A DNA stretch of 44,476 bases from a virus, in the IMG/VR virus record IMGVR_UViG_3300025876_000039; one strand, written 5' to 3'. This document shows, in pieces, positions 1 to 25,209 of the stretch; position 1 is the first letter of the stretch; each line of letters opens with the position of its first letter. The translations under genes and the position numbers were made by a program. Below the pieces are notes generated by a model that did no database searches, was not told where the DNA came from, and saw only the letters and a program-made list of their open reading frames with translations.

Positions 1-125
1 GCACTAAGTATTTTGTTGACAGGTTGAAAGATGATAGAAAAGAGTTGAGTGTTGAAGAAATTATAAATTTAACTCAAGGTCAATATGGGCATGATAAGTT
101 TAAGGATTTCTTTAATAATACTTGA
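1..125 (+). CDS. 3' partial of the octapeptide-repeat protein (wrap-around copy of 44178..44302)
   Basis: Encodes ...GTKYFVDRLKDDRKELSVEEIINLTQGQYGHDKFKDFFNNT with stop TGA at 123..125, identical to the C-terminus of 43094..44302. Confidence 0.85.
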   Translation, partial: TKYFVDRLKDDRKELSVEEIINLTQGQYGHDKFKDFFNNT

Positions 126-150
126 CTATATAAATTATATACATCATAAT
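122..150 (+). promoter_or_regulatory. sigma70-like promoter TTGACT-N17-CATAAT (early promoter/leader cassette, junction copy)
   Basis: TTGACT at 122..127, 17-nt spacer, CATAAT at 145..150, about 30 nt upstream of the ATG at 183. The -35 element overlaps the upstream stop codon. Confidence 0.55.
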
Positions 151-182
151 ACTAAAAATTACTAACTAAAACAAAAAACAAT

Positions 183-1391
183 ATGAACAAAAAACAAGTC
201 CAGCAAAAAGTATTACAAAACGGCAAGCCTCTTGCATTAAGTAAATTTACTTGGTGCGAGAAAACTATGACATTTTCAAGTGATGAAGATAATTTAGTTT
301 TTGCTTTTCAAAATATTGAGGGGGTAAAGATAATATCTAGAGATTGGTCAATTCAAACAGCAGGGTATAATTCAACTCAAACAGCAGGGAATGGCTCAAC
401 TCAAAAAGCAGGGCATAATTCAACTCAAAAAGCAGGGGCTTATTCAACTCAAACAGCAGGGAATGGCTCAACTCAAAAAGCAGGGCATAATTCAACTCAA
501 AAAGCAGGGGCTTATTCAACTCAAACAGCAGGGGCTGGGTCAACTCAAAAAGCAGGGCATAATTCAACTCAAACAGCAGGGGCTTATTCAACTCAAACAG
601 CAGGGGCTTATTCAACTCAAAAAGCAGGGGCTTATTCAACTCAAACAGCAGGGGCTGGGTCAACTCAAAAAGCAGGGCATAATTCAACTCAAACAGCAGG
701 GGCTTATTCAACTCAAAAAGCAGGGGCTTATTCAACTCAAAAAGCAGGGGCTTATTCAACTCAAACAGCAGGGGCTGGGTCAACTCACTTTATTGACGAT
801 CGTTGCCAAGTTGCTACAGGTTATGAATCAATAATTCATGTCAATGGTAATGATTGCGCTATAATTAACAGAAATGTATTCGAGTTAATACAACCAAAAT
901 CAGGAGATATTATCCAGATAAGCCCTGATAATATTGGGGGTCATCTAGTCAATGGTATTCATAGCATAACTGGTAAAAAATCTATCATTGCTGACGGCAT
1001 ATTGTCGGAAGTAATATCAAAGAAAGGTAATGTTTATAAAGTGATAAATCACGGAAAAACTAAGCCAAGCTACTTGATAGAAAGTGAGGTTAATGATAAG
1101 AAGGTATATTCTCACGGCAAAACTTTAAAAGAGGCTAGAGAGTCTCTAATCTATAAACTATCAGATAGAGACAGTTCACAATATAAAGATTTAACTTTAG
1201 ATAGTGTATTGAGTAAAGAAGAGGCTATTAAGTGCTATATGACTATAACTGGAGCTTGTATTAGTGGCACTAAGTATTTTGTTGACAGGTTGAAAGATGA
1301 TAGAAAAGAGTTGAGTGTTGAAGAAATTATAAATTTAACTCAAGGTCAATATGGGCATGATAAGTTTAAGGATTTCTTTAATAATACTTGA
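183..1391 (+). CDS. Ice-nucleation-protein-like octapeptide-repeat protein (copy B of a perfect tandem duplicate)
   Basis: 402-aa ORF. Residues 58-201 are 18 consecutive octapeptides AG-x-x-S-T-Q-(T/K). The first, AGYNSTQT, is one residue off the ice-nucleation octamer AGYGSTxT. No hydrophobic signal peptide. A non-repeat C-terminal domain of ~200 aa follows. Protein is identical to 43094..44302. Confidence 0.85.
   Translation: MNKKQVQQKVLQNGKPLALSKFTWCEKTMTFSSDEDNLVFAFQNIEGVKIISRDWSIQTAGYNSTQTAGNGSTQKAGHNSTQKAGAYSTQTAGNGSTQKAGHNSTQKAGAYSTQTAGAGSTQKAGHNSTQTAGAYSTQTAGAYSTQKAGAYSTQTAGAGSTQKAGHNSTQTAGAYSTQKAGAYSTQKAGAYSTQTAGAGSTHFIDDRCQVATGYESIIHVNGNDCAIINRNVFELIQPKSGDIIQISPDNIGGHLVNGIHSITGKKSIIADGILSEVISKKGNVYKVINHGKTKPSYLIESEVNDKKVYSHGKTLKEARESLIYKLSDRDSSQYKDLTLDSVLSKEEAIKCYMTITGACISGTKYFVDRLKDDRKELSVEEIINLTQGQYGHDKFKDFFNNT
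354..785 (+). repeat. 18 x 24-bp in-frame tandem repeat (octapeptide array) with higher-order blocks
   Basis: Unit caaa[c/a]agcaggg..nnnnnn..tcaact. The variable dipeptides run YN,NG,HN,AY,NG,HN,AY,AG,HN,AY,AY,AY,AG,HN,AY,AY,AY,AG, giving 72-bp and 120-bp superunits. Confidence 0.95.
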
Positions 1392-1416
1392 CTTTATAAA
1401 GCTTATACATCATAAT
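1388..1416 (+). promoter_or_regulatory. sigma70-like promoter TTGACT-N17-CATAAT (early promoter/leader cassette, third copy)
   Basis: TTGACT at 1388..1393 (contains the stop TGA at 1389..1391), CATAAT at 1411..1416. The leader is nearly identical to 122..182. Confidence 0.55.
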
Positions 1417-1447: not shown

Positions 1448-1789
1448 ATGAACAAAGAAAAATACCCAAATTTAGAATCAGAGAAAAACTATCAAAACAA
1501 TCTATATATTGAGGTTGACACAAGCGAAGGCTTGTATAGTGGCGAATCATTAAAAGAAATAATTGATGAGATTAACAATGACCACAATGGCTCTTGTGTA
1601 AAAGCTACTGCGATAATATGCTATTTTTCAAGAGATAGCCAAAAAGTATTATCAGATAAGCATTTACAAATATTTAATAAATTTCTTGCAGCTAAACTAG
1701 AAGAAAAAGCAGAAGAAGATCAAGAGGAATCTTGGGAAGACAACGGCTTTGAATTAGCAAGAAAGGATTTACAGGATCAATTACTATAA
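1448..1789 (+). CDS. Acidic early protein, function unknown
   Basis: 113-aa ORF behind the repeated promoter/leader. By my count 25 D/E versus 13 K/R. Acidic C-terminal stretch LEEKAEEDQEESWED. Confidence 0.75.
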   Translation: MNKEKYPNLESEKNYQNNLYIEVDTSEGLYSGESLKEIIDEINNDHNGSCVKATAIICYFSRDSQKVLSDKHLQIFNKFLAAKLEEKAEEDQEESWEDNGFELARKDLQDQLL

Positions 1790-1855: not shown

Positions 1856-2680
1856 ATGACAAAGAAAATAGATTTAACTAAATACAATTTTGGCGAGAAA
1901 TCAAAAGAAAAATATAAGAATTCAAAAACTAATCAATGGGAAGATTTGGAGGTATGGCAAACTCCTAAATATTTACAATCAAAGAAAAAAGCTATCGAAT
2001 TAATAGAAGATGGTAAATATTTGTTAGACGAGGGGGATTTTTGGATACTTAAAAATAAAGGTGGTTCTAAATTATGCTATACTGGATTAATAATTAGTCA
2101 TAATGGCTGCCTTAAAATTAATGATAAAGAGCCACCTGAAAAGCAATTTAAGCCTTCTTGCGTGTCATTTGTAAGAGATGAAGGGGATAAGTCAAAAGTA
2201 ATGCAATATATAAATGATGAGCAAGGAGTTTTTGAATTTGGAGAGATAAGCCCTTCAAATTGTAAAAATGATTATCCTTATGCAATGGTGCTTAAGCGGT
2301 TGATGGATAGAGTTATTTTAAAGAATAGCAAAGTAGGATTTTTTGGCATTTATTCTGATTCTGAAAGCGATGATTTCAAAGAAAAAATTGAGGAAAAAGA
2401 AACTATAGCTAGTAAATTTATTAAAGAACCTACTGGAGCAATGGCTAATATTGCCAATAGTGCTGATGAAGATTCAAAAGAAGTAAAGAGGCAAGGTGCA
2501 GAAAAATATTTTAGAGATTTTAAGGTAGAAATAGAAGGTTGCGGCAGTTGCTCAGAAATAGAAGGTTTATTTGAAAGAGATAAAACTAAAATTAATAAAT
2601 TAGAGCGAGAGCATAAAGATTTATTTGATAAGCTTATAGAATGTGTAAGAATAATGAAGGGAGAATTGGGCGATGAGTAA
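1856..2680 (+). CDS. Hypothetical early protein (possible ssDNA-annealing/recombination protein; weak)
   Basis: 274-aa ORF in an operon with NinB-like, SSB and VRR-NUC genes. Contains the segment NDYPYAMVLKRLMDRVILK followed by an acidic linker. Assignment to an annealing-protein family is a guess. Confidence 0.55.
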   Translation: MTKKIDLTKYNFGEKSKEKYKNSKTNQWEDLEVWQTPKYLQSKKKAIELIEDGKYLLDEGDFWILKNKGGSKLCYTGLIISHNGCLKINDKEPPEKQFKPSCVSFVRDEGDKSKVMQYINDEQGVFEFGEISPSNCKNDYPYAMVLKRLMDRVILKNSKVGFFGIYSDSESDDFKEKIEEKETIASKFIKEPTGAMANIANSADEDSKEVKRQGAEKYFRDFKVEIEGCGSCSEIEGLFERDKTKINKLEREHKDLFDKLIECVRIMKGELGDE

Positions 2681-6089: not shown

Positions 6090-6170
6090 AATCCACTCAA
6101 CAATAATATAAGCTACTAATACCGCAGCTAGTGGTATAAACATCCAGTAAGTCTTAAGAAATTTAATCAT
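6081..6170 (-). CDS. 29-aa hydrophobic peptide (last gene of the late operon; tentative)
   Basis: MIKFLKTYWMFIPLAAVLVAYIIVEWILF. Its ATG overlaps the upstream stop (ATGATTAA), which suggests translational coupling. Confidence 0.3.
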   Translation of the reverse strand: MIKFLKTYWMFIPLAAVLVAYIIVEWILF

Positions 6171-6492
6171 TGTTAACTTCAAAATAACCTAGTTCTAGTG
6201 CGTCTTGATAAGTAATTAATCCTTTTTTTAACTCTTCCAAAGGGCAATCAGAATTAATAGCATAAATTACATCCGTAATATTACCTTGAATGCTACCAAT
6301 AATAGGCATATGTTTATCATCGCAGTTACAAGTTGAGTTTTTGTGTAAAATAGGCATAGTATATCTATATGTTTTATTGTTAAGATTATACCCTAGTATA
6401 TTGTTAGCCGTACCTACTTTAGGGTTATAGTCATGACCTACTTTATCATAAAAATATTCTAATGACGACTTTTTATATCCTAAAAATATCAT
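6163..6492 (-). CDS. Hypothetical protein
   Basis: 109-aa ORF whose start overlaps the upstream stop. Confidence 0.7.
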   Translation of the reverse strand: MIFLGYKKSSLEYFYDKVGHDYNPKVGTANNILGYNLNNKTYRYTMPILHKNSTCNCDDKHMPIIGSIQGNITDVIYAINSDCPLEELKKGLITYQDALELGYFEVNND

Positions 6493-7265
6493 GAGTCTAA
6501 TGTGTATTTATTGTTTAAGTAATTATATAACTGGTTTCTTTCAGTTGTATTAACATTTTTTGTATAAAAAATTAATTCTTGCATTTCACCTTCAAAATAA
6601 TTATTGAAGGAAACCGCTATTGAAGGCGTAGCTATTGTACTAAAAGTATTAAATGTTGTTGCAAAAGTTAAGCTATTATTTAAATAAACATTCATTGATG
6701 AGTTGTTCACCACTACATTATAAACTTTATTTTTATTAAGAGTGACGCTAGTCTCTGAAAAAGCAACTTGTTTACGGTCGTTAGATCCAAAGTCATCATA
6801 AATATCACCATTTGTTCCTGCTTCAATCCCCCCATAATGATTAGATAATTTAGAAGGTGATCCAAATTTCCAATGCGATCCATTACGAGCGGCGACTGCA
6901 CCAGATGAAGTATCTTTAATAACAACAAATCCACTAATAGTATTTACTCCATTAAATATATCAGGGCAGCTCAAAAAATCATTAACACCATCAAATATAA
7001 CTTTTTTATTTATTGAATCGTAAGTAGGTTGATTTGTAGATGTAACTTGTGTTAGATGGTTGTCGTTACCCGAAGCATCATTCCACTGACTAATCTTAGA
7101 TGCGCCATTAAAAACAAATTGACTAGAATCGTTACATTTAAACCAAGCTATTAAATTAGATATAGTTTCTGGCTCTTCTGGTGGCGGTGGCGTGCCTACA
7201 CCTCCTAATAAGTTCTTTGTCAAATCACTTACTAGATTATTTGTTAAATTTACAGTCAATGTCAT
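6489..7265 (-). CDS. LamG / concanavalin-A-like lectin domain protein
   Basis: LIAWFKCNDSS...ISQWNDASGNDNHLTQ...NQPTY...VIFDGVNDFLSC is the typical Laminin_G_3 N-terminal pattern. A proline-rich linker PPPPEEPE precedes it. Confidence 0.65.
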   Translation of the reverse strand: MTLTVNLTNNLVSDLTKNLLGGVGTPPPPEEPETISNLIAWFKCNDSSQFVFNGASKISQWNDASGNDNHLTQVTSTNQPTYDSINKKVIFDGVNDFLSCPDIFNGVNTISGFVVIKDTSSGAVAARNGSHWKFGSPSKLSNHYGGIEAGTNGDIYDDFGSNDRKQVAFSETSVTLNKNKVYNVVVNNSSMNVYLNNSLTFATTFNTFSTIATPSIAVSFNNYFEGEMQELIFYTKNVNTTERNQLYNYLNNKYTLDS

Positions 7266-7618
7266 TTTTCAATCCAATTAATTTTTAAAGGCAAATTGTA
7301 ATATTTAACAACATATTCAATCCTTTTAGAATATTTGTCATAATCTTCTTTGCTGCCAATAAGTAGGCAATGCGGCTCTTTATTTTGTTTTGCTCCATAA
7401 TATAGAGCTTGCCCTAAACATTCAGCCCATTTCTTTGCGTGGTCATACTCAATGGCTTCTGCCTTAGTTAAGCAATCAACTCTTGTACTATCATCATTTC
7501 TAACCTCTGTAGCGCCATTTACGAGATCGCAATGTATATCTTGATAATACCTTTCTGTCTTTGCTTGCGCGTCCTTAAAAAAGAAAAAGCTAATAAGTAT
7601 TATTAATGATTTTTTCAT
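7262..7618 (-). CDS. Secreted protein with cleavable signal peptide, function unknown
   Basis: MKKSLIILISFFFFKDAQA is followed by a Cys-containing 100-aa domain. Confidence 0.65.
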   Translation of the reverse strand: MKKSLIILISFFFFKDAQAKTERYYQDIHCDLVNGATEVRNDDSTRVDCLTKAEAIEYDHAKKWAECLGQALYYGAKQNKEPHCLLIGSKEDYDKYSKRIEYVVKYYNLPLKINWIEK

Positions 7619-7754
7619 ATAATCCTTTTTGTAAATATCTTTCTTATTTTCTTTGGCAAAGACTTAATAAATCTTTTTAATCTTGTAAACATAATTTGTC
7701 ATTTATTTTATAAAAATAACACTAAATCACTACTTTAGTTAAAGTATACTTGTA

Positions 7755-8354
7755 TTAAATACTTATTTTTCTAGTTACCCAGTTGCCTTTTATTTTTTCA
7801 GCAAATTTAACCTCATTTCTATTATCGGCTTCATGTTCGCTAAAGCCTAGATGCAATATATTATTTTCAATTAATAATTGGTCAAATTGAATTCTAGATT
7901 GAATAACTAACCTTGCTAGTTTATCAGGGGCTAATTCCATACCCAATATTGTAGCTTTAATATCAGCGGCTAAACCTGCCATGTGGCGGCTAGTAGGAGA
8001 GCCACCGACTAATAGATTAACCTGCCAATTTCTGTAGCCACTTGTTATTGTAATTACAACATTACTAGTATTAAATTTTTCTTGTAGAAATAGATGCAGG
8101 TGCTGCAATTTATCGGAGGTTTTAAGCAAATTTTCTAATATTCTTTGCTCGGTCGGTCTATTATTTATACCTTGTTCTCTAGCTGTTCTTGAAGCGTAAA
8201 ACTCGGTATAGTGAAAATTAGCATTTCCAAGTTCTTCAATTTCAATGAGGCTGGCACTATTTTGCTGATACCTTTCATTATTGCCATATATGTTCTTGCT
8301 TGGCTTTTTCTTTTTGCAAAAAATAGATAGTAGGTTTTTAATAAATTTCATCAT
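7755..8354 (-). CDS. Endolysin, peptidase M15-type (D-Ala-D-Ala carboxypeptidase-like zinc peptidase)
   Basis: ITSGYRNWQVNLLVGGSPTSRHMAGLAADI plus a downstream His (ILHLGF) matches the SxHxxGxAxD zinc-binding layout. Sits in a lysis-cassette context. Confidence 0.75.
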   Translation of the reverse strand: MMKFIKNLLSIFCKKKKPSKNIYGNNERYQQNSASLIEIEELGNANFHYTEFYASRTAREQGINNRPTEQRILENLLKTSDKLQHLHLFLQEKFNTSNVVITITSGYRNWQVNLLVGGSPTSRHMAGLAADIKATILGMELAPDKLARLVIQSRIQFDQLLIENNILHLGFSEHEADNRNEVKFAEKIKGNWVTRKISI

Positions 8355-8415
8355 AAATATTTTTTAAGGCGCTTTAAACCCAAGTAAATCAAGGGTTTTT
8401 GCTTTGGTAGCGACA

Positions 8416-8730
8416 TCAATGTCGTCGACTTAATTTATCACATTTTTCAATATATCGCTGCTTGTTTCGATCAATTAATTTGCTAAAATATAAAATTAAT
8501 TTTTCTTCATTTGTAAATTCTTGATTATTTTTTTCTTTTCTTAAAATTTCTTCTTCAAGAATAAAGGCATATTCTTCTAAAGATTTATCCATATAATCTT
8601 GCGGGTAAATATAAGTGCTGCAAAAATCACTTTCTATCTTTATTAGTTTTTTGCTCTCGCAAGATGATGCTAAACATAGAACTAGACTTAGTATTGCTAT
8701 GCTTTTTATCAGCTTTATTAATGCTTTCAT
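8416..8730 (-). CDS. o-spanin-like lipoprotein
   Basis: Signal peptide with a lipobox: LVLCLASSC. The 5' 104 nt overlap the preceding TM-protein gene in another frame, the Rz/Rz1 type arrangement. Confidence 0.6.
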   Translation of the reverse strand: MKALIKLIKSIAILSLVLCLASSCESKKLIKIESDFCSTYIYPQDYMDKSLEEYAFILEEEILRKEKNNQEFTNEEKLILYFSKLIDRNKQRYIEKCDKLSRRH

Positions 8731-8866
8731 TATGCTTAATTTTAAATTCTTTAGTTTCTTTTTTTAGATTATCAATAACCTTTCTTTTGCCTTTGCTTTC
8801 GCCACTTTTAAAAATAACTAGAAAGGATAAAAGTATTGATCCAGCAACTGCAAATATTTCAAACAT
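8627..8866 (-). CDS. i-spanin-like protein (N-terminal TM anchor, charged periplasmic part)
   Basis: MFEIFAVAGSILLSFLVIF is followed by a K/E-rich sequence. Overlaps the lipoprotein gene. Confidence 0.55.
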   Translation of the reverse strand: MFEIFAVAGSILLSFLVIFKSGESKGKRKVIDNLKKETKEFKIKHNESINKADKKHSNTKSSSMFSIILREQKTNKDRK

Positions 8867-9044
8867 TGTTTTTTAATTCGATTAATTGCTGCAAATTTGT
8901 ATTACTAGCAACAAGTATTAAAGCATATCCAATACAACAACCTAAAATAAATATTGTCAAAAAAAATATCCTTGATTGCCATTTTCCCATACCCATACTT
9001 CTTAGATATTTAAAATAGTCTAATATATCTTTGATAGCTTTCAT
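8859..9044 (-). CDS. Holin candidate (61-aa membrane protein)
   Basis: Hydrophobic span IFFLTIFILGCCIGYALILVA. Lies immediately upstream of the spanin pair. Confidence 0.5.
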   Translation of the reverse strand: MKAIKDILDYFKYLRSMGMGKWQSRIFFLTIFILGCCIGYALILVASNTNLQQLIELKNNV

Positions 9045-9728
9045 TTATTTTTTGCAAAAAAGTTTAATACTGCTTGCATAATGCAAAGCGAGTTGAAATA
9101 CATTATATGGTGTCATTTCTTTAGCTACTCCATTTTCAATAATAGAAGTATCATGACCAAGTTTTTCTAAAAGTAGTGCAGTTTTAAAACTACAAAATAT
9201 CTTTTCTAAACTAATATCAAGTATTTCTTCATTATCTTTGCTATCTACTTTGAAGTTTAGTTTTTTAGTTATATCGTTAATAGTGTCGCTATCTAGTGCT
9301 GACATTGCTGCTGACATCTCACCATAAGGCAAGCCGTGTATTTTTTTTGTAAAATCTTTAATAATTTTTTTATCAAATTTATCAAAAGTGGCTATAATAA
9401 CTCTGCCATCATAGTGCTTGACAAAATCCAATAAATCATTAATCTCAACACCACTAAGCATAGCGTCTACTGTTTCAGCTTTATAAATACTTGTTGAGTC
9501 TATTTCATCAAAGCCTTTAATATAACCAACATGATCTATTGCTAAATCGCCGTTGATCTTATGGACTAATCTTGTGAGCGAAAATAACGGATTAAGTAGG
9601 TTTTTAAAATTGAGGTTTTTAATATAAAACAAAGCGTGAAATTTATCATGCTCTAGCTTGTTTATTTCTTCCTGGATATTCTCTAGCCTGTGTATACGCT
9701 CTAACTGTTTAATATTTATTTTTTTCAT
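9045..9728 (-). CDS. Possible permuted papain-fold (NlpC/P60-like, YiiX/C92-type) peptidase; tentative
   Basis: The His block AIDHVGYIKGF comes before the Cys block EKIFCSFKTALLLEKLG, the order seen in permuted NlpC/P60 amidases. Lies within the lysis region. Confidence 0.35.
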   Translation of the reverse strand: MKKINIKQLERIHRLENIQEEINKLEHDKFHALFYIKNLNFKNLLNPLFSLTRLVHKINGDLAIDHVGYIKGFDEIDSTSIYKAETVDAMLSGVEINDLLDFVKHYDGRVIIATFDKFDKKIIKDFTKKIHGLPYGEMSAAMSALDSDTINDITKKLNFKVDSKDNEEILDISLEKIFCSFKTALLLEKLGHDTSIIENGVAKEMTPYNVFQLALHYASSIKLFCKK

Positions 9729-10071
9729 TTTTATCTTTTTCTAGTAATTTAAATAATCTATCTAAAGGCTCTTGCATATTTCTACTGGCGTGCCTAGCAA
9801 CACTTAGCTTCAAATCATCTTCCATCTGATCTAATCTAGTATTAAAATAATCTTTTAATTCCTCTTTGATAGCTTGCCGCTGTTTAGTCTCTTTACAATC
9901 TATTTTGGTAATTCTTTTTTCTAAATCGTCAAATCTTTCTCCAATTCTTGACTTATAAACAGTAACACCCAATTTTGAAATAAGTGTAACCATGCCTAAA
10001 AATAAGAAAGCAACAAAACCATAGATAATTGAAGAGATATAATCTAACATTAGTTTAAAAGGTATTTGCAT
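9709..10071 (-). CDS. Membrane-anchored coiled-coil protein (holin/antiholin or lysis regulator candidate)
   Basis: N-terminal TM segment IIYGFVAFLFLGMVTLI followed by a charged helical region. Overlaps the next gene. Confidence 0.55.
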   Translation of the reverse strand: MQIPFKLMLDYISSIIYGFVAFLFLGMVTLISKLGVTVYKSRIGERFDDLEKRITKIDCKETKQRQAIKEELKDYFNTRLDQMEDDLKLSVARHASRNMQEPLDRLFKLLEKDKNEKNKY

Positions 10072-10104
10072 AAAATTATGTTTGTTTTGTGGGAGTGTTT
10101 CATT

Positions 10105-10773
10105 TCAAGATAAATCAAGCCTTGTGCCATTTTCATTTTTAGGAATTTCGATTGATTCAATTTCTGCAACTGTTGTTGAGTTATTAATAGATTCTTTAAT
10201 GCTTCTAAAATAAGTGCTATTGATAGCTAATCTATACAACACATGACCCTCTAAAGCCCTTGCTAATTTAATATCAAGCCTAACTTGTCCTTTGCGTAAA
10301 AAATTACCAGCACTATCTATAATATCACAAAAATAGTCTATAAACTCTTGCAACTTATCTGTATTACTCTCAAGAGTTCTTACTCTATTCTCAAAATTAG
10401 CATTTTTAATATAGTTAATAATATCAACAATATTTCTGCCATTAACTTGCCTAAATTGTAAATCTACTTGAAAGCTTACACCGCCTGCCTCTGTTTGCAA
10501 AACACCATCAATTACTTCATAAGCTGGAAATAAATCATCGTGATAATGATTATAATTACTTGAATCTAAATCATCTTTTATACCCTCAAGCTCTTTTAGC
10601 TTTTTTTCTTTAGCTTGCGTTAGCTCCCAAGTGTCAATTAAAGGCTTCTCATCAGCTTTTATATTCCCAGTTGTGCGGTCAATGCAATCTACCCAATCAT
10701 TTATTCTAAAAGTGCCGCTTAGGTTAGTTTCTTTTTTAATTTCGCCTGTTACTGTATTTCTTGAAATATCCAT
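10105..10773 (-). CDS. Hypothetical protein downstream of the tail fibres (possible fibre accessory/assembly protein)
   Basis: 222-aa ORF. Assigned by position only, plus the segment LTQAKEKKLKELEGIKDDL, which resembles tail-fibre-associated DUF4376-type proteins. Confidence 0.45.
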   Translation of the reverse strand: MDISRNTVTGEIKKETNLSGTFRINDWVDCIDRTTGNIKADEKPLIDTWELTQAKEKKLKELEGIKDDLDSSNYNHYHDDLFPAYEVIDGVLQTEAGGVSFQVDLQFRQVNGRNIVDIINYIKNANFENRVRTLESNTDKLQEFIDYFCDIIDSAGNFLRKGQVRLDIKLARALEGHVLYRLAINSTYFRSIKESINNSTTVAEIESIEIPKNENGTRLDLS

Positions 10774-10785
10774 AGTTTTATTAAT

Positions 10786-11973
10786 TTAATATTTTTCTTC
10801 CCAGCCTTTAGTTCGTGTAGAATTAAAGCTTGTTAATAAATTATTACTCCTTTTGCCGATTTCACCGTTCTCATTTGCTGTTTCTGAAAGTTGAGAGTAT
10901 CCTCCAAAATTAATATTTGTTCCTTGACTGCAATAATTGTTCTGAGGATTAATATTAAAGTCATTTAAATTTGTGTACAATGTAAAACAAATTGTTGAAC
11001 TATTGCCCCCTGATTGAGCTAAAAAATCTACCTTTGCATTGGGTGGTACTCTCATGTTAATAGCTTTTCTTGAAATAGAACTTGAGTTATCAACAAAAAT
11101 ATAACCTTTATATTGGAATCTATACCCGCTTTTATTTACAAAATATTGACCAGCCAATATATTATTACTAGCATCGGTATAAAAAGCACCGATATATTGC
11201 TTTTTGGTTAAGCTATTAGTGCTAACAACACTATCGCCACTAATTGTTGAGCCATCTCTTGTTGTAGTGCCTATAATGTCAGTTAGCGTTCCATCTGCTG
11301 TTGATATAACAAACATATAAACTAAGCCATCAGTTGGTAAAGACTCGCCGCTTACCATACCACCTGCATCATCGCCAAGAGCAAAGGTTGCATCAAATTG
11401 TTTAGTCAATGCACTAGTTGCCGCCTGTCCGCTGCCATCATCAAAATTCATAACACCAGCTCCAAAATCTATATCGTGGTCAGAGTCGGTTGAGTTGTTG
11501 GCTATTGTTATTGGTTTAGGGAGTAGGGTTGTTCCTAGTGCTGTTGTGGTGGCTTGTTGCGTATTAATTAAATTAGCTAAATCACCTAATAATTGCCAAT
11601 TAGCAACATCAGTTAAGGCGTTACCTTCATTGTTATTTGTGATTGATTCATAAACCTTTGAGCCACCTATTTCTCTTGTTATGTCTCCTATATGATAGTC
11701 AAGTGATGCGTTATATTCGGGAATACCTTTTTGTGTTAAATAATAAATTTGGCGGCTATTGTTATATTGCAAGCCTTGCATTTCTTCAAGTGGTGGTAGC
11801 TTAGTAGCTCCGCTTGTAGCATCTAACCAGCCGTTATCATAAGCAGCTAGGGCTTGGATAATGTCGGGGTCATTGCTTTCTATTTTAGTTCCTGCTTGTG
11901 ATGATCCAAATTGACCATTGTTAGTAGCAGCGTTTGCAAATAATTTGTAATGCTTTCTTGTAATATTAGCCAT
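10786..11973 (-). CDS. Tail fibre protein 2 (shares its N-terminal anchor with fibre 1)
   Basis: The N-terminal ~130 aa are paralogous to 12283..14367 (MA..TRK..KLFA, FGS, D.IQ, NGW, YL.Q.GI.EY.A...YHI, W..LG). The C-terminus is divergent and rich in G/S/T/N. Confidence 0.7.
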   Translation of the reverse strand: MANITRKHYKLFANAATNNGQFGSSQAGTKIESNDPDIIQALAAYDNGWLDATSGATKLPPLEEMQGLQYNNSRQIYYLTQKGIPEYNASLDYHIGDITREIGGSKVYESITNNNEGNALTDVANWQLLGDLANLINTQQATTTALGTTLLPKPITIANNSTDSDHDIDFGAGVMNFDDGSGQAATSALTKQFDATFALGDDAGGMVSGESLPTDGLVYMFVISTADGTLTDIIGTTTRDGSTISGDSVVSTNSLTKKQYIGAFYTDASNNILAGQYFVNKSGYRFQYKGYIFVDNSSSISRKAINMRVPPNAKVDFLAQSGGNSSTICFTLYTNLNDFNINPQNNYCSQGTNINFGGYSQLSETANENGEIGKRSNNLLTSFNSTRTKGWEEKY

Positions 11974-12283
11974 AATTTCTTAAATCTTCTTCAGTTGATA
12001 AGTTATTTATTTCAGAAATTTTTAAATCTATTGTTGATTGATCTCCTGCATATTTACTATTGACATAATCTATCTTGGCATCTTTTAAATCATTTAATAA
12101 AGCTTCTTTAATTTCATTGTGGGAAAAAGAAGGCTTAGGGCAGTTAAACCGCCACAGAGGAAACTCTATTTTATAAAAGCCATTATCTGCTTTATAAATT
12201 CTAGTAGTGTATCGCAAGAATAAGATTTTAAAGTCTTCATTGATACCTTGCGATTCTAAATAAGGTTTTATTAATGCTTTCAT
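11966..12283 (-). CDS. Small protein between the two fibre genes (possible fibre chaperone)
   Basis: 105-aa ORF with overlapping junctions on both sides. Assigned by position only. Confidence 0.45.
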   Translation of the reverse strand: MKALIKPYLESQGINEDFKILFLRYTTRIYKADNGFYKIEFPLWRFNCPKPSFSHNEIKEALLNDLKDAKIDYVNSKYAGDQSTIDLKISEINNLSTEEDLRNYG

Positions 12284-14367
12284 TATTTTTTAATATTCAT
12301 ATCGATTGAAAAAATATCTACAGTAAAAGAGGAATCGCCAGCAATACCAATTGCTATTTCATCGCCTGTGCTTATGCTATCAATAATTGTTGTTATTGGA
12401 TAAGTGTTAGCTCTTGATGATAGTAGTTCTCCTCTAGTTGATGGATGATTGCTTATTTCTACAAAAGAAGGTTGACCAGCATCTTTACGCATTACATTAA
12501 CAAATAATTCAGCAGTTGTGCCTGATGTTTTTTGAGCTATTACTTTCGCAGATATTGAGACTGTAGCAGTTGTTTTGCCTGTATAAATCAAGCTGCCAGT
12601 CGATGTCGCTTTAAATCTTTCCGTTTCATCACTTAACCAAGTACCAGTTACTACCTCTATTAGTGTTGTAGTCGCAGGAAAGGCAATTGTTGAAGTCAAT
12701 ATGTTGTTACCTAGCGTTTGAGAGTCGGGAATAATGCCGCCAGTATTATTCGTAGTTACAACATTATTTGTTTGATCTAAGCTACCTGTATTAAATATTG
12801 CATTTGCTGGAGTCTCAGCAGAGGTGAATGGAACGGCTACACCAAAGCTATCAAGTAAAGTAAATGTTGTTCCAGTTACATTAACTGCATAACCCCCTTG
12901 ATCGTAATTATTAGTGCCTTTGATAAATAATGATTGCCCAGTTGTTGGAGCTGTGCCAGTTGTAGTAAATAAAGCTAGACCTCCGCTATCTGTTACAGAT
13001 GTTATATCGTCGATTACTCCCTGTTTAAAAAAGTTATCTATATAGATATTACTGCCATCAAGTAGCGTTGCTACACCTTGAGCATCATCAGCTACAAAAG
13101 TAGCGGTTATATCAAAAGTTCCAAATTGGAAAGTCGGATCTATATTAATGACATTAGATACAGTATAGCTACCATTATAATTAGCAGTAAAAGCAATATT
13201 AACTACATCGCTATTTTCAAAGGAATGTCCACCAGCTACAATAACCCTAGTTTGACCACCTCCTAAATCTGCAAATTGGATTATACCACCAAATACATCT
13301 CCTTGATAAGGGACGGCAGCCCCTACAGACAGTCCAGAAGTAGGTAAAATTGCAGGATCAACATTTAAAATAGATTCTCCTTTTGCTTGAAAAAAAGCAG
13401 ATGATGAAATATTGGCTTGCCTTAAATTTGTTTTAAAAGTATAAAAAGGATTTCCAGTTGATACAAAATGGCGACCAACAAAATTAATATGATTAACAAC
13501 CGAAACATTATCATAAATTAATTCTCCAACTTGAAATTGCTTAACTCCAAGCCAAAAAACACCAGTCATATTGATAAAAGTTGCACCTGAGAAATTTTCA
13601 AACTGACATAGTGAACATACTACCTCACTTTCTAAAGAGTTTGTGGGGTGACCTGTCAATGTTGCAAGTGGAGTAGTACCTGTTGCACCTGAAAATCTTA
13701 AATTCTTCCAATATAGATATTTAACTCTTTTTCCAGAAGTATTACTAAATCCGTTAGAAGTAGCAGCAAAAATAATTTGAGTATTGGGTAAACCCGAGCC
13801 AACAAAAGCAACAGATAAATCATCTAAATCACAGACTATATTCTTTGTAATAATTAATTGACTAACTGATATATAATACATCGTGTTAGTATCTCTTAAA
13901 TAGATATTAGATGCGTCTTGATTTTTGAAATCACTTTCTTGCTTAACAATTACAACATTGTTAGCTTGATCTAAATTACCAAGTTTACGCCATTTTGAAG
14001 CATTGCTTAGAGCTTGCCCAATATTGGTATTGATTAAAGATTTATAAATTAAACCTGTGCCATTCTCTTTAACCATTGAATCAATATGGTATTCTGTGCC
14101 TGCATCATATTCCGCTATACCCTCTTGCAACAAATAAGCATTTTGATAATCATTGACATATTTTAAAGCATTTTGCTCTTCAATAGCAGCTTGCTTATCC
14201 CCGTTATTATCTTTATAGCCTTCAATCCAGCCGTTCAAATAATCGCTTGATTGTATTAAATCTAAATCGGTTGTTGTGGTTGGCGTGCCATCTTTGAAGC
14301 TACCAAATACTCCTTTATCAACATTTTTTGCAAATAGTTTTTGCGTTTTTCTTGTGAGTTTAGCCAT
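12283..14367 (-). CDS. Tail fibre protein 1 (long)
   Basis: 694 aa. Its N-terminal anchor is homologous to fibre 2. The distal part is long and T/S/G/N-rich. Follows the baseplate genes. Confidence 0.7.
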   Translation of the reverse strand: MAKLTRKTQKLFAKNVDKGVFGSFKDGTPTTTTDLDLIQSSDYLNGWIEGYKDNNGDKQAAIEEQNALKYVNDYQNAYLLQEGIAEYDAGTEYHIDSMVKENGTGLIYKSLINTNIGQALSNASKWRKLGNLDQANNVVIVKQESDFKNQDASNIYLRDTNTMYYISVSQLIITKNIVCDLDDLSVAFVGSGLPNTQIIFAATSNGFSNTSGKRVKYLYWKNLRFSGATGTTPLATLTGHPTNSLESEVVCSLCQFENFSGATFINMTGVFWLGVKQFQVGELIYDNVSVVNHINFVGRHFVSTGNPFYTFKTNLRQANISSSAFFQAKGESILNVDPAILPTSGLSVGAAVPYQGDVFGGIIQFADLGGGQTRVIVAGGHSFENSDVVNIAFTANYNGSYTVSNVINIDPTFQFGTFDITATFVADDAQGVATLLDGSNIYIDNFFKQGVIDDITSVTDSGGLALFTTTGTAPTTGQSLFIKGTNNYDQGGYAVNVTGTTFTLLDSFGVAVPFTSAETPANAIFNTGSLDQTNNVVTTNNTGGIIPDSQTLGNNILTSTIAFPATTTLIEVVTGTWLSDETERFKATSTGSLIYTGKTTATVSISAKVIAQKTSGTTAELFVNVMRKDAGQPSFVEISNHPSTRGELLSSRANTYPITTIIDSISTGDEIAIGIAGDSSFTVDIFSIDMNIKK

Positions 14368-15113
14368 TATAATTGAATTATTTTATCATAAGTTAATATT
14401 TCGCCAGCAGCATCAGTATCATAAGTCGTAAAGCCTGCAACATTGCTACTATCTATTTGTGTATCATAAGTCGTAAAGCCAAAGAAAGGCTGATCTCTTA
14501 CAATTAATCCATTTAGATTTACACCCATCGGCCTTGGCAATACACCTTTGCTAAATGCAATTAAAGCTACTCGGCTTTCATTACTTTTTACAAAATAAAC
14601 CATAGTCATATTATCACTTGCTGATTGCACTATCCTATCTTCAAAAAATAGAAATAATCCGTCATCGATAGATTTTTCGCTATGATCTGAATTATTTTGA
14701 ACAATCCTAAGTTTTAAAATTAAGCGATAATCATTATCATTTAATTTATTACCGATTTGCAAGCTTGCATATTCTGAAACTTCCAAGCCATAAGTATTAC
14801 TGTTATAATCAGCTATTTCTACATTATAAAGCGTGTTTACATCGATATATTCTACAACCTGACCATTATCACCTATAGCCTCGCCTGTAGCTTGATAAAA
14901 TCTATTTACACCGACTAGCTTACCTATAACATCTAACTGCTTACCAACCGCAGTTTCAAGATTAAAAGCATTTTCGACTTGCGAATAAATATCATTATTG
15001 AGTAAGTTTTTTACAAATAAATCAATCTCAGCCTTAGCTTTTTCTTTTTGATTATATTGTATAATCAATAAGTTTTGATAATATTTCGAAACTTCTTTAA
15101 TATCTATTGCCAT
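14367..15113 (-). CDS. Baseplate wedge / fibre-attachment protein (DUF2612-like, P2 gpI position)
   Basis: Directly downstream of the baseplate-J gene. The N-terminus ...YYQNLLIIQYNQKEKA resembles DUF2612 starts. Confidence 0.5.
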   Translation of the reverse strand: MAIDIKEVSKYYQNLLIIQYNQKEKAKAEIDLFVKNLLNNDIYSQVENAFNLETAVGKQLDVIGKLVGVNRFYQATGEAIGDNGQVVEYIDVNTLYNVEIADYNSNTYGLEVSEYASLQIGNKLNDNDYRLILKLRIVQNNSDHSEKSIDDGLFLFFEDRIVQSASDNMTMVYFVKSNESRVALIAFSKGVLPRPMGVNLNGLIVRDQPFFGFTTYDTQIDSSNVAGFTTYDTDAAGEILTYDKIIQL

Positions 15114-15114
15114 T

Positions 15115-16311
15115 TTAGATTTCTGTAATAGTTATCCTTGCATTATCAACAATCCATTTTTCATCAACTGTTGCAACATCTAAAAAGTTAACATAAGTTA
15201 TACCATCATCTGACACTTCTAAATTTAAGGGCACACCACCCCCTCCTAAAGAGTTTATAGCTTCTAAAGCAATAGCTGTTACTCTTGAAGTCTCAGCAGC
15301 CTCGCCAATCTCAAAAGTTAGGTTATCAGTTATATATTGCTTTATGCCGTCAATATCAAAAGAAGTTCCTGCAACTGTCGATTTTAAATTAAATTGAATC
15401 CATAGATTTTTAGAAGTAGGTCGGTCAAACTTAGCTTGGAATATCTCGCCATTATCTTTAATTATATCAACGGCTACACTACCTTTTAAACCACATCCGC
15501 TATTTTTCTTGGTATATATACCATTAGCAATATCAGTATTAGAACCACCTTCTACGATAGCCCAAATTGAATGAGCTGGTATTGAGTTTGCATCAGTTGT
15601 ATTTGTGAAATTCTCATAAACTCTTGCATCGGTTACGCTATCTACATTTAACAAATCGCCTAACAAGCCATCTGTAAAGCCCTTTGATCTATTAGCACTT
15701 GATCTTGATAATCTTAATCTAAATTGAGAATCTAATTCTCCATCCTTGCCAAGCTCCAAAACACCGCTTGGATTGTCAATATTAGTTACGCCTAGAACAA
15801 CGGTTATTGGGTTTGTTATTGTGTTAGGTAGCGTTGTTATTGAGCCTAATTCTTTAGCTCTAAAAGTTAAAAGATAAGTACCAGCACTAGCGATATTAGT
15901 TGTATCAAGCAAAATAAATTCATTACCTGTATTATCTGCTACTGTGTAGCCTGTGCCATCAATATTATTTGCGTCATCGTCAAGCCCTTCTAAAGTTAAA
16001 CTTCTATCAGTTGTTATTTCTACTTGTTGCTGTGTGAATGTTGCACCTTGCCTAGCAATATTTAACAATGGAGCTAGTCTATCCAAAGCCTCGCCATTGG
16101 CTTGATCTAAATCAAAATTGTTGTAGATTGTTTGCAATAATTCCAATAAATCTCTTATTGCTTGAGCTTCAATATTTATTCTCTGTCCATCGGGTGAGTC
16201 GCTAGAAATAGCTATATCATTGCCATAAATATTTTTATAGCCAGTTTCAAAAGCCGTGATAATTTCATTTAAGCTATCAGTAACTAATCCGTTTTGATCT
16301 AATGTACTCAT
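15115..16311 (-). CDS. Baseplate J-like protein
   Basis: 398 aa. SSDSPDGQRINIEAQAIRDLLELLQTIYNN is a typical gpJ N-terminal block. Gene order V-W-J-I is preserved. Confidence 0.7.
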   Translation of the reverse strand: MSTLDQNGLVTDSLNEIITAFETGYKNIYGNDIAISSDSPDGQRINIEAQAIRDLLELLQTIYNNFDLDQANGEALDRLAPLLNIARQGATFTQQQVEITTDRSLTLEGLDDDANNIDGTGYTVADNTGNEFILLDTTNIASAGTYLLTFRAKELGSITTLPNTITNPITVVLGVTNIDNPSGVLELGKDGELDSQFRLRLSRSSANRSKGFTDGLLGDLLNVDSVTDARVYENFTNTTDANSIPAHSIWAIVEGGSNTDIANGIYTKKNSGCGLKGSVAVDIIKDNGEIFQAKFDRPTSKNLWIQFNLKSTVAGTSFDIDGIKQYITDNLTFEIGEAAETSRVTAIALEAINSLGGGGVPLNLEVSDDGITYVNFLDVATVDEKWIVDNARITITEI

Positions 16312-16661
16312 TATTGAGTTATAACTATAGTTTCACTTTGTGAATATATAGTTTTGATTTTTGCCGTTACTGTTGCTTGTCTGTTTTCTATGTTCGCATC
16401 TAAACTTAAAACCTCCGTTACTTCGTTAGTTTTAAGTAAAATGTCCCTTACTTCATCAATTAATATATCTTTTTGCTTTTTGTAGCCCAATCTATTATTC
16501 CAATCTACGCCGTTATTTTGAGCAAAAAAACAATCAGTTTTCCACTCTCTAACCCTAGATATGATATGTTGTTTTAAGCCTTCATTGGATTTTTTATAAT
16601 CAGCTTTACCCTTACCAAAAGTCCAATCATCATTTTTATCTAAAGATCTAATAGTAGTCAT
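16311..16661 (-). CDS. Small baseplate wedge protein (gpW/gp25 position)
   Basis: 116 aa, between the spike and J genes. Start and stop overlap the neighbours. Confidence 0.5.
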   Translation of the reverse strand: MTTIRSLDKNDDWTFGKGKADYKKSNEGLKQHIISRVREWKTDCFFAQNNGVDWNNRLGYKKQKDILIDEVRDILLKTNEVTEVLSLDANIENRQATVTAKIKTIYSQSETIVITQ

Positions 16662-17353
16662 TTTAATAAATTACTTACTCTAGTTGATAATGCACTTAAG
16701 CTTGAAGCCGTGCCAGCGTCAATAGGTAGATTGCCACTAACTGGGTCTACACATTGCAAGCTAGTTATAATTGTTATTAATTCATCAATTATAGCCTTTA
16801 AGCTTTCTGCTGTATTTTTAAGCTCCAATTTATCATCTAAATTTATTTGACCGCCAGCACTATTAAGCAAGCTAATTTTTGAATTATCAAGTAAAATCTT
16901 ATTTGCTAGATAATTAAGCTCTGTCGCCGTATTATTATAATCAGTTATTTTATTAACTTGACTTCTAATACCTACTAAAGCAATAGCATCTGCTAAGTCG
17001 TGAGTTCTCTTTGTATTAGGTTTTTGGCTTAATCCATCATCAAACCAATTATCAATATCTCTATCATTAAATAGCACTAGGCAAGTATCGCCAGCATTTA
17101 TAGGTATTGTTAAGCCACCGCTCGCCCCTTTGTTTACAATAACTGGCACATCTTGCAACAATGAATAAGTTTGTAACACCTCGCCATCAATAGTATCTCT
17201 TACGCCTTTATCAATTAAGCTAACTGTAGCAGTTTGATTATCACTATCAAAGCTTTCTATCGTGCCTATTTTATGGCAATTTAATTCTTTGAAAATATCT
17301 ATTTTCAATCCATCTAAAATATCTATTAAGTCGGGGTTTGATTTATCTATCAT
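16658..17353 (-). CDS. Baseplate spike / assembly protein V (Gp138 N-terminal-like)
   Basis: IGTIESFDSDNQTATVSL...VPVI...IPINAGDTCLVLFNDRDIDNWF...HDLADAIALVG resembles the gpV/Mu gp45 OB-fold spike. Confidence 0.6.
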   Translation of the reverse strand: MIDKSNPDLIDILDGLKIDIFKELNCHKIGTIESFDSDNQTATVSLIDKGVRDTIDGEVLQTYSLLQDVPVIVNKGASGGLTIPINAGDTCLVLFNDRDIDNWFDDGLSQKPNTKRTHDLADAIALVGIRSQVNKITDYNNTATELNYLANKILLDNSKISLLNSAGGQINLDDKLELKNTAESLKAIIDELITIITSLQCVDPVSGNLPIDAGTASSLSALSTRVSNLLK

Positions 17354-18225
17354 GATACAAATTTTAAGCCTTTAGTTAATTTATCGCCAGTTAGTAGCTG
17401 TAAGTTAGTTTTAGCCTCGCCACTTGTAGCCTCTGAGATCGTGCCACTATGCTTAACGCCAATTACTTTATATTGACCGTCAAACTTTGGATTAAAAGCC
17501 GATTCAATTTGCACCACTTGACCCACTCTTATTCTTGGCTCAAATATCAGATCAATATTAATAAAAGTTCCTTGCAATAATGGCGTGCCTAACAGTCCAG
17601 TTTCTGAATTAATATTAAATAATTGGCCTTTTATAGCCTCATTAGGTTTTAACTTGTTTATAGTCTCTAAGTCAATAAAATATTCATCTTTGAAATTTTT
17701 ATCAAGTAAATTAAAAGTATTGCCATTAATTGGCACGGCTCTTTTATATTCCCCTTCTGTTTCGCCTACCGCACCTTTTTTTAACCCAATAAAATTGGCT
17801 AATTCATCAAATAAATCCTTCCTAGTTATACCTTTATCAAAGGTTTTATTTATATATGAATTATAGGTAAGTGCCGCACTATCTAATGCTTGCATATAGG
17901 TTATTATATCGCTGCCTTGCCTGTATGAATAAGCCTCCATCAAATCACCTATAAAGATTGTTGATAGCTCGCCATAACCAGCTTGCAAAACAATTCTACG
18001 CTTGTCAATAGTTCGATTTTTCATATCGAATCTATTTTGAAATATAACCGACCTGCTACTTTCTTTTAAATTGTAAACCCTAAGTATTGCATTATTAAGA
18101 GACGCCCCCGTGCTTCGTTCAATCTGAAATTCAATCGTCAATGGATTAGCTATTTCTATAAATTCAGTTAGCTTGCCTTTTTCTTTGATCTCTACCAATA
18201 ATTTATATTGTCTGCCAAATTTCAT
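17350..18225 (-). CDS. Baseplate hub protein (Mu gpP / XkdQ position)
   Basis: 291 aa, upstream of the spike gene. Assigned by position and size. Confidence 0.45.
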   Translation of the reverse strand: MKFGRQYKLLVEIKEKGKLTEFIEIANPLTIEFQIERSTGASLNNAILRVYNLKESSRSVIFQNRFDMKNRTIDKRRIVLQAGYGELSTIFIGDLMEAYSYRQGSDIITYMQALDSAALTYNSYINKTFDKGITRKDLFDELANFIGLKKGAVGETEGEYKRAVPINGNTFNLLDKNFKDEYFIDLETINKLKPNEAIKGQLFNINSETGLLGTPLLQGTFINIDLIFEPRIRVGQVVQIESAFNPKFDGQYKVIGVKHSGTISEATSGEAKTNLQLLTGDKLTKGLKFVS

Positions 18226-18566: not shown

Positions 18567-18569
18567 ATC

Positions 18570-19379: not shown

Positions 19380-19380
19380 A

Positions 19381-21384: not shown

Positions 21385-21388
21385 AAAT

Positions 21389-21844: not shown

Positions 21845-21851
21845 AATTTAA

Positions 21852-25206: not shown

Positions 25207-25209
25207 AGC

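Follow-up and report, generated by a model that had tools for sequence, protein, structure and literature searches.

What does a phage do with a gene whose product contains a long, perfect array of octapeptides worded like those of bacterial ice-nucleation proteins (INPs)? The question is raised by a plus-strand open reading frame (ORF) at 183..1391 of IMG/VR virus record IMGVR_UViG_3300025876_000039, the 44,476-nucleotide (nt) stretch of DNA that was analyzed as a whole and that is called the window here. In the ORF list its product is a protein of 402 amino acids (aa), and this protein is identical to one in the JGI collection (P0096). A first-pass annotation of the window had read it as an INP-type beta-solenoid encoded by one of the first early genes. 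The reading that we favor, and consider probable, is a three-part cytoplasmic phage protein: a hypervariable solenoid would provide a changeable recognition surface, fused to a conserved C-terminal module that is possibly enzymatic.

The array itself has a pattern far beyond chance. Tandem Repeats Finder (TRF) reports a repeat at 348..787 with a period of 24, 18.3 copies and a score of 572. As had been annotated, the hypervariable array proper (354..785, plus strand) is uninterrupted, with 18 in-frame 24-nt units that encode Q[T/K]AGxxST across residues 58-201; counted in the AG register, there are 17 full units followed by AGAGST-HF. Each unit joins the constant sequence TCAACTCAAA[C/A]AGCAGGG to a 6-nt cassette NNTNNN and translates as AG-x-x-S-T-Q-[T/K]. 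No change is seen across the 18 units in 18 of the 24 nt columns, among them every synonymous site of the five constant codons. Variation is found in columns 5, 13, 14, 16, 17 and 18 only: column 5 (ACA/AAA) sets Thr or Lys, and two adjacent codons, with 5 of their 6 nt variable, set the dipeptide. The five dipeptide cassettes are TATAAT (YN), AATGGC (NG), CATAAT (HN), GCTTAT (AY) and GCTGGG (AG). Higher-order blocks had also been described, and both NG-HN-AY and AG-HN-AY-AY-AY are indeed present twice, but the periodicities that they produce are 24 and 40 residues, not 16 and 48. The array (residues 58-201) is basic, with a pI of 9.9; it contains 9 Lys but neither Asp nor Glu. A DNA mimic like the pentapeptide-repeat proteins, Ocr or ArdA was rejected on the basic character of the array and its lack of acidic residues.

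Related arrays show where change is tolerated. Seven other complete octapeptide arrays have synonymous variants in 0-1 of their constant codons, and in six of them there are as many distinct nt units as distinct aa units. The family array set comprises 72 arrays with 757 units, and entropies were calculated for the 61 arrays with at least 6 units. The mean within-array entropies at positions 1-8 are 0.18, 0.95, 1.68, 1.76, 0.08, 0.72, 0.36 and 1.42 bits, and over all 757 units the variable positions are mostly occupied by S, Y, D, W, N, G, F, H, R and K, D, N, T. Arrays across the family have about 3 to 22 units, and large differences in number occur even between alleles with 100% identical flanks, which carry 5 (P0241), 6 (P0243), 7 (P0240), 10 (P0001), 10 (P0239), 18 and 18 units. 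The two 10-unit alleles differ in unit order, and the two 18-unit alleles, that of the window and P0244, are a single T/K apart. In the closest relative of the window (L003, 99.3-99.9% identical to it), the gene is present in a single copy with 10 units, and its array is that of the window minus one copy of each block. Three further proteins from a second lineage (P0002, P0003 and P0004), in which the 546-nt C-terminal flank is 99.3-100% identical at the nt level, have 15, 12 and 14 units with the cassettes in different orders. In these three, the Phe codon TTT or TTC travels with the residue that follows it (TTTAAA versus TTCGAC/TTCAAC), which points to shuffling of pre-existing unit variants. 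The array pattern agrees with concerted evolution, driven by slippage or unequal recombination, in combination with diversifying selection at three surface positions.

That phage early genes can contain variable in-frame arrays has been clear since VR2 of Bbp36 was described (Liu et al. 2002, 2004, cited in PMC2884959). According to PMC2884959, VR2 in Bordetella phages BPP-1, BMP-1 and BIP-1 is a 24-bp element made up of a 19-bp repeat and one of three 5-bp spacers, present in 9-20 copies and dispensable. The BPP-1 units consist of GGCACGGCCACCGCTGGC plus TATCGC or GAATCC and encode AG[YR/ES]GTAT; the spacer encodes the dipeptide at positions 3-4. The two designs share a 24-bp unit with about 18-19 constant nt and a 5-6-nt cassette, an octapeptide that begins AG-x-x with a variable dipeptide at positions 3-4, and a location in a non-structural gene of the early/replication region. 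In both, the number of units varies, between isolates for VR2 (PMC2884959) and between metagenome assemblies for the window side. By tblastn, the window array and Bbp36 are 33-38% identical over the array. The flanks, in contrast, are unrelated. Bbp36 has a DUF7666 N-terminal domain (E = 1.7e-10) and a short C-terminal tail, lacks the N-terminal cap and 140-aa C-terminal domain of the window protein, and matches phrog_18079 with E = 2e-162; the window protein has no DUF7666 match in Pfam and matches phrog_18079 through its repeats only (E = 6e-7). Judged from these comparisons, VR2 of Bbp36 is the closest described design; the window protein works in the manner of VR2 but is not a Bbp36 homologue. 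Another parallel is gp54 of mycobacteriophage Tweety, encoded by a dispensable gene (PMC2884959), with a tetrapeptide array (12-nt/4-aa unit) that has been suggested to be intrinsically unstructured. It too is a non-structural phage gene with an in-frame array, variation at codon positions 1-2 and copy numbers that differ among related phages (PMC2884959), but its unit is 12 nt long and its sequence is unrelated. Tandem arrays of 24-bp units with tblastn matches to the window array also occur in two Vibrio phages: in vB-Vp-ZX1018 (L115, about 1900..2400), where the opposite strand is annotated 'D-ribose pyranase', and in F23s1 (L114, 1..572), where the start of the record cuts through the array.

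Instead of recombination and selection, a dedicated mutagenic system could have written the variation, either by reverse transcription like that of a diversity-generating retroelement (DGR) or by another templated mechanism. The sharp confinement of the variation to specific codons would suit such a system, and the Bordetella phages with VR2 have a DGR as well. Even so, we consider it extremely unlikely. The window contains no reverse-transcriptase-like ORF (tblastn with Brt gave E > 2), no template copy of the unit lies outside the two arrays of the window (the gene is duplicated, as described below) at up to 3 mismatches, and substitutions such as TCG/TGG and GGC/GGG are not adenine-specific; moreover, the same cassettes recur unchanged in different orders. 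DGR-like or other templated mutagenesis was rejected on the first three of these counts: no reverse transcriptase, no template repeat and no adenine-specific substitutions.

The array is predicted to be ordered. AlphaFold2 (AF2), given a 94-sequence alignment, returned a model with a predicted local distance difference test score (pLDDT) of 91 and a predicted template modeling score (pTM) of 0.71. The model has one 3-residue strand (T-Q-T/K) per 8 residues between approximately residues 49 and 256, forming a continuous solenoid that is capped by residues 1-48. Thus, the first-pass expectation of a regular beta-solenoid, rather than a disordered array, was borne out by the prediction. Together with the significant Pfam match described below, this means that two of the three outcomes named in that annotation as refuting it did not occur. 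The N-terminal cap domain (aa 1-48 approximately; 183..326, plus strand) has a pLDDT of 96-97, with short strands packed on the solenoid. Its consensus in our alignment A1, MNKxxVQxRVLxNGKPLxLxKFxWDExTxTFSS, is common to the octapeptide subfamily, and the N-terminal 57 aa have no match in Pfam. Beyond the array, aa 202-256 (786..950, plus strand) are degenerate solenoid rungs and a C-side cap, with DSSP strands at spacings of about 8 residues up to 256 and the octapeptide-subfamily consensus CVIVNRNVFEVIQPKxGDIIQICP (A1). They are followed by a five-stranded sheet (266-312) and then helices (315-400). The first-pass annotation had described a non-repeat C-terminal domain of about 200 aa; a distinct C-terminal domain does exist, but residues 202-256 continue the solenoid in the AF2 model. 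The protein looks intracellular: as annotated, it has no signal peptide, given that a hydrophobic N-terminal segment is absent (the maximum Kyte-Doolittle value in a 15-residue window is 1.17).

Two octapeptide rungs probably make up one 16-residue coil, by analogy with INP models. The AG turn and the small residues S5 and Q7 are fixed; S5 and Q7 would face inward, and positions 3, 4 and 8, which differ from rung to rung, outward. In the INP model, S5 faces inward and the threonines and tyrosines outward (PMC9418140). By our own mapping, those threonines and tyrosines would fall at octamer positions 3, 6 and 8, so that INP positions 3 and 8 match variable positions of the phage array.

The solenoid is followed by a conserved C-terminal alpha/beta domain. 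This domain occupies aa 262-402 approximately (966..1388, plus strand), is about 135-140 aa long in the family, is preceded by a tandem array and is marked by the motifs [YF][SA]HGxT[LI]xEA and ITGACxxG. Over 234 sequences, D271, H311, G312, T314, K325, D330, Y352, T356, G357, C359 and T386 are 93-100% conserved. In the AF2 model, His311 is at the end of a strand and Cys359 lies just ahead of helix 360-369, an arrangement that may be compatible with a Cys/His active site. A search for homologues of this domain alone found at least 1,409 clusters (50% identity) at E<=1e-3, with the domain always C-terminal; 849 clusters are found at E <= 1e-10 and 296 at E <= 1e-30. The top match to the domain profile is the window protein itself (P0096, 249 bits), and 325 stretches in IMG/VR match as well.

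The domain is fused to tandem arrays with a period of 8, 9 or 18-22 aa, those of 9 and about 20 aa being found in hundreds of phage contigs. The 9-aa arrays read SSG[DY][SY]A[KQ][IL][GA], for example in Dulem virus 31 (L002). Those of about 20 aa read LPDNLTVGGxLxLxGTGITS or LPEGFNPTVGGxLxLxSLTS, for example in Tetrasphaera phage TJE1 (L077), and vary at the x positions of GGxLxLx. The 20-aa arrays reach none of the Pfam thresholds for leucine-rich repeats (LRRs), the best being LRR_14 with 22.6 bits against a cut-off of 40; thus, calling them 'LRR-like' refers to the LxxLxLxx..LP motif only.

The C-terminal domain was compared with several collections. Neither the single domain nor 20 members gave a family match in Pfam, and NCBIfam and PADLOC gave none either. 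Among PHROGs there is a weak match only, to phrog_12949 of unknown function (E 7.5e-4). Sequence profiles of the PDB gave noise (RIO2, E = 0.05-0.24), as did Foldseek against the PDB, with best E values of 0.025 for the whole model and 0.47 for the domain alone. The fold search of BFVD matched only uncharacterized phage proteins and, via the repeats, a DUF7666 protein. Literature searches on DUF7666, on hypervariable repeats in phage beta-solenoids and on variable residues in phage LRRs yielded no description of this family. VR2-type arrays are already known, but the family, its C-terminal domain and the use of several scaffolds appear to be undescribed in the literature searched.

Within the species-representative genomes, contigs with the domain fall in bins of Vampirovibrio/Gastranaerophilales, Alphaproteobacteria, Clostridia, Bacteroidales (among them the isolate Dysgonomonas sp. 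511) and Elusimicrobia, and several of the record titles point to gut or rumen. Three other members can be noted. P0069, with 6 units, is encoded on a 291-kb contig (L004, JGI 3300073671) that also has genes for a T4-like RNA ligase, a dCMP deaminase and RlaP and is probably a jumbo phage. P0072, a close relative of P0069, has about 16 units. P0020, a 327-aa JGI protein with CGxxSTVT rungs, carries the source name 'ribosomal protein L36', evidently a mis-annotation.

How does the resemblance to ice-nucleation proteins fit with this? Part of it is real. The first unit, AGYNSTQT, does share 7 of 8 residues with AGYGSTQT, and the protein matches the Pfam family PF00818 (Ice_nucleation) over 9 stretches with 35.2 bits against a gathering threshold of 27 (E = 9.3e-9). 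Like bacterial INPs such as InaZ and PbINP, it has an AGYGSTxT-like octapeptide and a predicted beta-solenoid with inward Ser and outward Thr. The idea of a true ice-binding or ice-nucleating protein, whose stacked S-T-Q-T ladders would order water in the manner of INPs or solenoid antifreeze proteins, could draw on this Pfam match, on the regular solenoid in the AF2 model and on the T-x-T motif in 9 of the 18 units.

The details do not agree with an INP, however. INPs have a 16-residue coil with the consensus AGYGSTQTAGEESSLT and 50-80 such coils, with a minimum of 13-15 for activity; they also require arginine-rich R-coils near the C-terminus, a C-cap and, at the N-terminus, a domain for binding to the outer membrane (PMC9418140). 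INP coils combine two types of half-coil in a 48-residue order, whereas all 18 units of the window protein are of one type, that of the first half, and the alternating AGxxSxLT half-coil is absent. The echo of an 8/16/48-residue hierarchy noted in the first-pass annotation is not supported: identity at the variable positions is 0.30, 0.34 and 0.43 at lags of 8, 16 and 48, but 0.61 at lags of 24 and 40, and these peaks arise from recent duplications of 3- and 5-unit blocks of DNA. The 18 octamers amount to 9 coil-equivalents, without Arg-rich coils, and the Pfam scan found neither an INP N-terminal nor an INP C-terminal domain in this cytoplasmic phage protein. Where half of the units have T-x-T, the other half have T-x-K.

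Most telling are the orthologues. Proteins with the same N-terminal 50 aa and C-terminal 200 aa (both approximate) carry TGxxCTF[KDN], CGxxATI[KN], IGxxSTN[DK], TGYxSTVT or AGxxSTL[KE] rungs. The PF00818 cut-off is reached by none of the relatives with other unit types that were scanned, P0044 scoring 16.1 bits, P0005 11.1 bits, and P0002, P0023 and P0038 giving no match. Since orthologues with the same flanks have other rungs, the INP-like wording is one flavor of a variable scaffold and not a conserved functional feature. On the strength of sequence comparison, we take these orthologues to be decisive against INP identity. Many relatives are also from metagenome-assembled genomes (MAGs) with gut or rumen record titles. 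A role in ice, whether nucleation or binding, was rejected on periodicity, coil number, end domains and orthologue rungs, and we see scarcely any chance that it is correct. The INP-type reading therefore survives as a structural likeness only; the resemblance reflects the same structural solution, not ice nucleation.

The favored reading, a changeable recognition surface on a constant module, starts from what the data show directly: the anatomy, the fold prediction, the family, the pattern of variation and the tandem duplication. The N-terminal cap would start a single-chain beta-solenoid of octapeptide rungs that ends in the conserved alpha/beta domain. Repeated gain, loss and shuffling of the 24-bp units, by replication slippage or unequal recombination, would homogenize them, with variation persisting in the cassette codons only. 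The outcome would be alleles that differ in the number and order of rungs while the rest of the gene stays constant. The array may thus be a binding surface that can be re-tuned rapidly to follow a fast-evolving partner, such as a host factor, a host defense protein or a protein of a rival phage, and the constant domain, with His311, Cys359, Lys325 and Asp, would perform a fixed task, either catalysis or docking. Such a protein would probably act in host takeover, counter-defense or inter-phage conflict.

Several points weigh against this reading. Most of the arrays come from short-read metagenome assemblies, and their unit counts and orders may be partly wrong; assemblies of this kind are unreliable for such repeats (PMC12222747). 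In about 40 of the 80 IMG/VR loci a contig end falls within the array, 130-630 nt upstream of the C-terminal domain. How large the coils are, which way the variable residues point and whether His311 lies near Cys359 are inferences. The C-terminal domain has no detectable relative of known function in Pfam, in the PDB by sequence or fold, or in PHROGs, and the homology searches gave no pointer to a binding partner or an activity. Finally, the range of 5-18 units in proteins that are otherwise identical would also suit an array that is only a spacer.

That last alternative deserves separate consideration. The array might be a spacer or ruler of variable length, or a neutral, expansion-prone linker between the N-terminal cap and the C-terminal domain, whose side chains play no part in recognition. 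Tolerance of 5 to 18 units between identical flanks, the recent block duplications and the family range of about 3 to 22 units would all be consistent with this. Yet nearly all nt variation between units is non-synonymous and at three positions, the synonymous sites of the constant codons being invariant. Y, S, D, W, N, G and R are overrepresented at the variable positions, the 20-aa arrays show the same pattern at their GGxLxLx x positions, and near-identical phages differ in the order of their cassettes and not in number alone. We therefore think a spacer unlikely.

A changeable surface on a constant module has precedents outside phages. Fungal HNWD NOD-like receptors (NLRs) combine a hypervariable repeat sensor of high internal conservation with a constant effector (PMC12222747), and 'hypervariable repeat proteins' follow the same evolutionary logic (PMC10392669). 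The WD40 repeats of the HNWD proteins HET-D/E, transcription activator-like effectors (TALEs), lamprey variable lymphocyte receptors (VLRs) and Flavobacterium LRR loci resemble the phage arrays in their near-identical units, few variable surface positions and recombinational gain, loss and shuffling (PMC12222747, PMC10392669). As here, their alleles differ in unit number and order. The phage array differs from them in its fold, in its much shorter 8-aa unit, in being viral and intracellular, and in its partner, a new C-terminal domain rather than NACHT/NB-ARC, a nuclease or an activator.

This likeness suggests another possibility, a phage-borne sensor or exclusion protein with NLR-like logic, in which the array would detect proteins of competing phages and the C-terminal domain would execute exclusion or abortive infection. 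Besides the HNWD design, a variable-repeat sensor plus a constant effector (PMC12222747), one could point to family members in contigs binned with bacterial MAGs, some of up to 258 kb and possibly prophages, and to tandem paralogue pairs. On the other side, there is no PADLOC match and no NTPase or known effector domain, and the family is also present in apparently lytic-type contigs and in the 291-kb jumbo-phage-like contig. The data here do not separate a sensor role from counter-defense, and we regard the sensor as quite unlikely.

LRR-NEL effectors (IpaH/SspH) likewise place a repeat-based recognition domain before a constant domain with an essential Cys. They are architectural analogues only: the C-terminal domain here is of about 140 aa and mixed alpha/beta, and it shows no similarity in sequence or fold to the NEL domain or to any solved structure. 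BFVD matches named 'E3 ubiquitin-protein ligase' and 'SspH2 (Leucine-rich repeat protein)' derive from the repeat part.

The VR2 array design recurs across at least 1,400 clusters of one family, on three scaffolds joined to one invariant C-terminal domain, which argues that the arrays are selected recognition surfaces; VR2 of Bbp36, hitherto unexplained, thereby gains a family context. A bolder proposal, which we put forward tentatively and think unlikely, is a widespread new phage system of 'programmable' intracellular proteins. One Cys/His enzyme-like domain would be combined with interchangeable scaffolds (8-aa solenoid, 9-aa roll and 20-aa LRR-like), the variable di-residues forming a modular recognition code like that of TALEs or VLRs that is re-tuned by unit shuffling and gene amplification in arms races with host defenses. 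If this were true, it would mean a new class of minimal natural binder scaffolds as well as a new counter-defense or effector enzyme. An 8-residue rung with two or three free positions would in any case be an unusually compact natural binder scaffold and may interest protein engineers. Handles for experiment include H311 and C359, array exchange and the natural allelic series of 5-18 units. Two cautions also follow: a PF00818 match alone does not mean ice nucleation, and repeat counts from short-read phage assemblies are not to be trusted.

The position of the gene in the genome bears on one more alternative. Structural genes, namely those for terminase, portal, major head protein, sheath, tape measure, baseplate and fibers, lie on the minus strand at 6163..36192, and by this predicted content the genome is a myovirus of about 44 kb. 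The plus-strand module includes small ORFs and genes for a NinB-like protein, a helix-turn-helix protein, a DUF6291 protein and a phrog_98 protein (YopX in the annotation of relatives); in one relative, DnaB and HNH genes adjoin the gene. Megablast of 20 kb of the window against 50,697 phage records gave no match.

A virion or tail protein, forming a trimeric intertwined beta-helix like the T4 gp5 needle with fiber length set by array length, would account for variation in length as in fiber proteins. The C-terminal beta-helix of T4 gp5 (PF22178, Gp5_trimer_C; octapeptide VxGxxxxx) has the same 8-residue period and a weak profile similarity: the window protein scores 23 bits, which is below threshold, and P0038 and P0121 score 32.2 and 31.4 against a cut-off of 30.9. 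That helix, however, is made of three intertwined chains in the virion. AF2 predicts a capped solenoid of a single chain here (pLDDT 91), and the gene is outside the structural module: all virion genes are on the other strand, and its surroundings consist of replication and regulatory genes. In addition, the C-terminal domain has an invariant Cys and His and is not a receptor-binding tip, and Bbp36, with its analogous array, is dispensable for growth (PMC2884959). We judge a virion role to be improbable.

The gene is present twice in the window. The window ends 1..299 and 44178..44476 are identical (299/299), which indicates that the window is a complete, circularly permuted genome 44,177 bp long; its break falls within the repeat-bearing gene region. 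Copy A, with the N-terminal cap, octapeptide solenoid and conserved C-terminal domain described above (183..1391, plus strand), is matched by copy B (43094..44302, plus strand), which encodes an identical protein, with 100% nt identity between 172-1393 (approximate start) and 43083..44304. The array of copy B also has 18 units, at 43265..43696 on the plus strand (TRF 43259..43698; offset 42911). The tandem duplication is perfect, with a unit of 1266 bp that contains the whole gene.

Could the duplication be an artefact of wrap-around or assembly? The junction between the genes (126..182, equal to 44303..44359) is a unique sequence in which the upstream and downstream promoter cassettes are joined into a hybrid. 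An independent SPAdes contig from ENA (L113, ERZ807166 NODE_10523; 1..1363) carries an 18-unit gene, and the 154 nt before it, including the tail of an upstream copy, are 100% identical to the window junction. The artefact was ruled out on this basis, and because the unique junction recurs in an independent assembly, we conclude that the tandem duplication is real. Exact-match scans of IMG/VR and JGI metagenome contigs for the junction found none, although an exact look-up of the 402-aa protein was likewise blank despite the presence of P0096 in the collection. The hybrid is P1-left/P2-right, the reverse of what a simple unequal crossover would be expected to give.

A promoter/5'-untranslated region cassette, TTGACT-17-[C/T]A[T/C]AAT, precedes copy A, copy B and the next gene. 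All three sites are on the plus strand and were located by consensus scan. The one before copy A is TTGACT-17-CATAAT at 122..150, a 10/12 match that overlaps the junction; the one before copy B is TTGACT-17-TACAAT at 43032..43060; the third, also identified by sequence comparison, lies at 1388..1416, before the next gene (1448..1789), and is a likely recombination substrate for the duplication. Consensus matches are frequent in this 32% GC DNA, with 14 found against 8.3 expected. The promoter-like site claimed at first pass is thus present, but the gene is not among the first early genes: a divergent promoter region near 36364 opens the plus-strand module, and the gene is about 6.7 kb downstream. 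Its apparent first place came from the point at which the window starts. The gene would be expressed from this non-structural module, presumably early. Diverged tandem paralogue pairs with different arrays are found elsewhere in the family, at L008 3257..5538, L071 1782..4414 and L079 3122..5574 (L079/L080), and the identical pair in the window is the earliest stage of a recurrent amplify-then-diverge pattern.

Other features of the window can be noted briefly. The minus-strand block ends with a 526-aa ORF (34612..36192) that has an N-terminal DNA-methyltransferase-like region (phrog_799/111). Imperfect TCT/TTC-rich tandem repeats at 27106..27350 lie within a minus-strand ORF beside the head genes (26961..27947, 328 aa), which is probably a Glu/Lys-rich scaffold-like protein. 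Two short tandem repeats, at 37779..37835 (24 nt x 2.4) and 38126..38211 (33 nt x 2.7), are located at the start of and within ORF 37774..38310. Finally, a dense tandem repeat of 7 bp (TATTAGA) and 28 bp at 41118..41220 lies just upstream of ORF 41205..41879 and extends over its start; the L003 counterpart of this ORF encodes a DUF6291 protein, and the repeat looks like replication-origin iterons.

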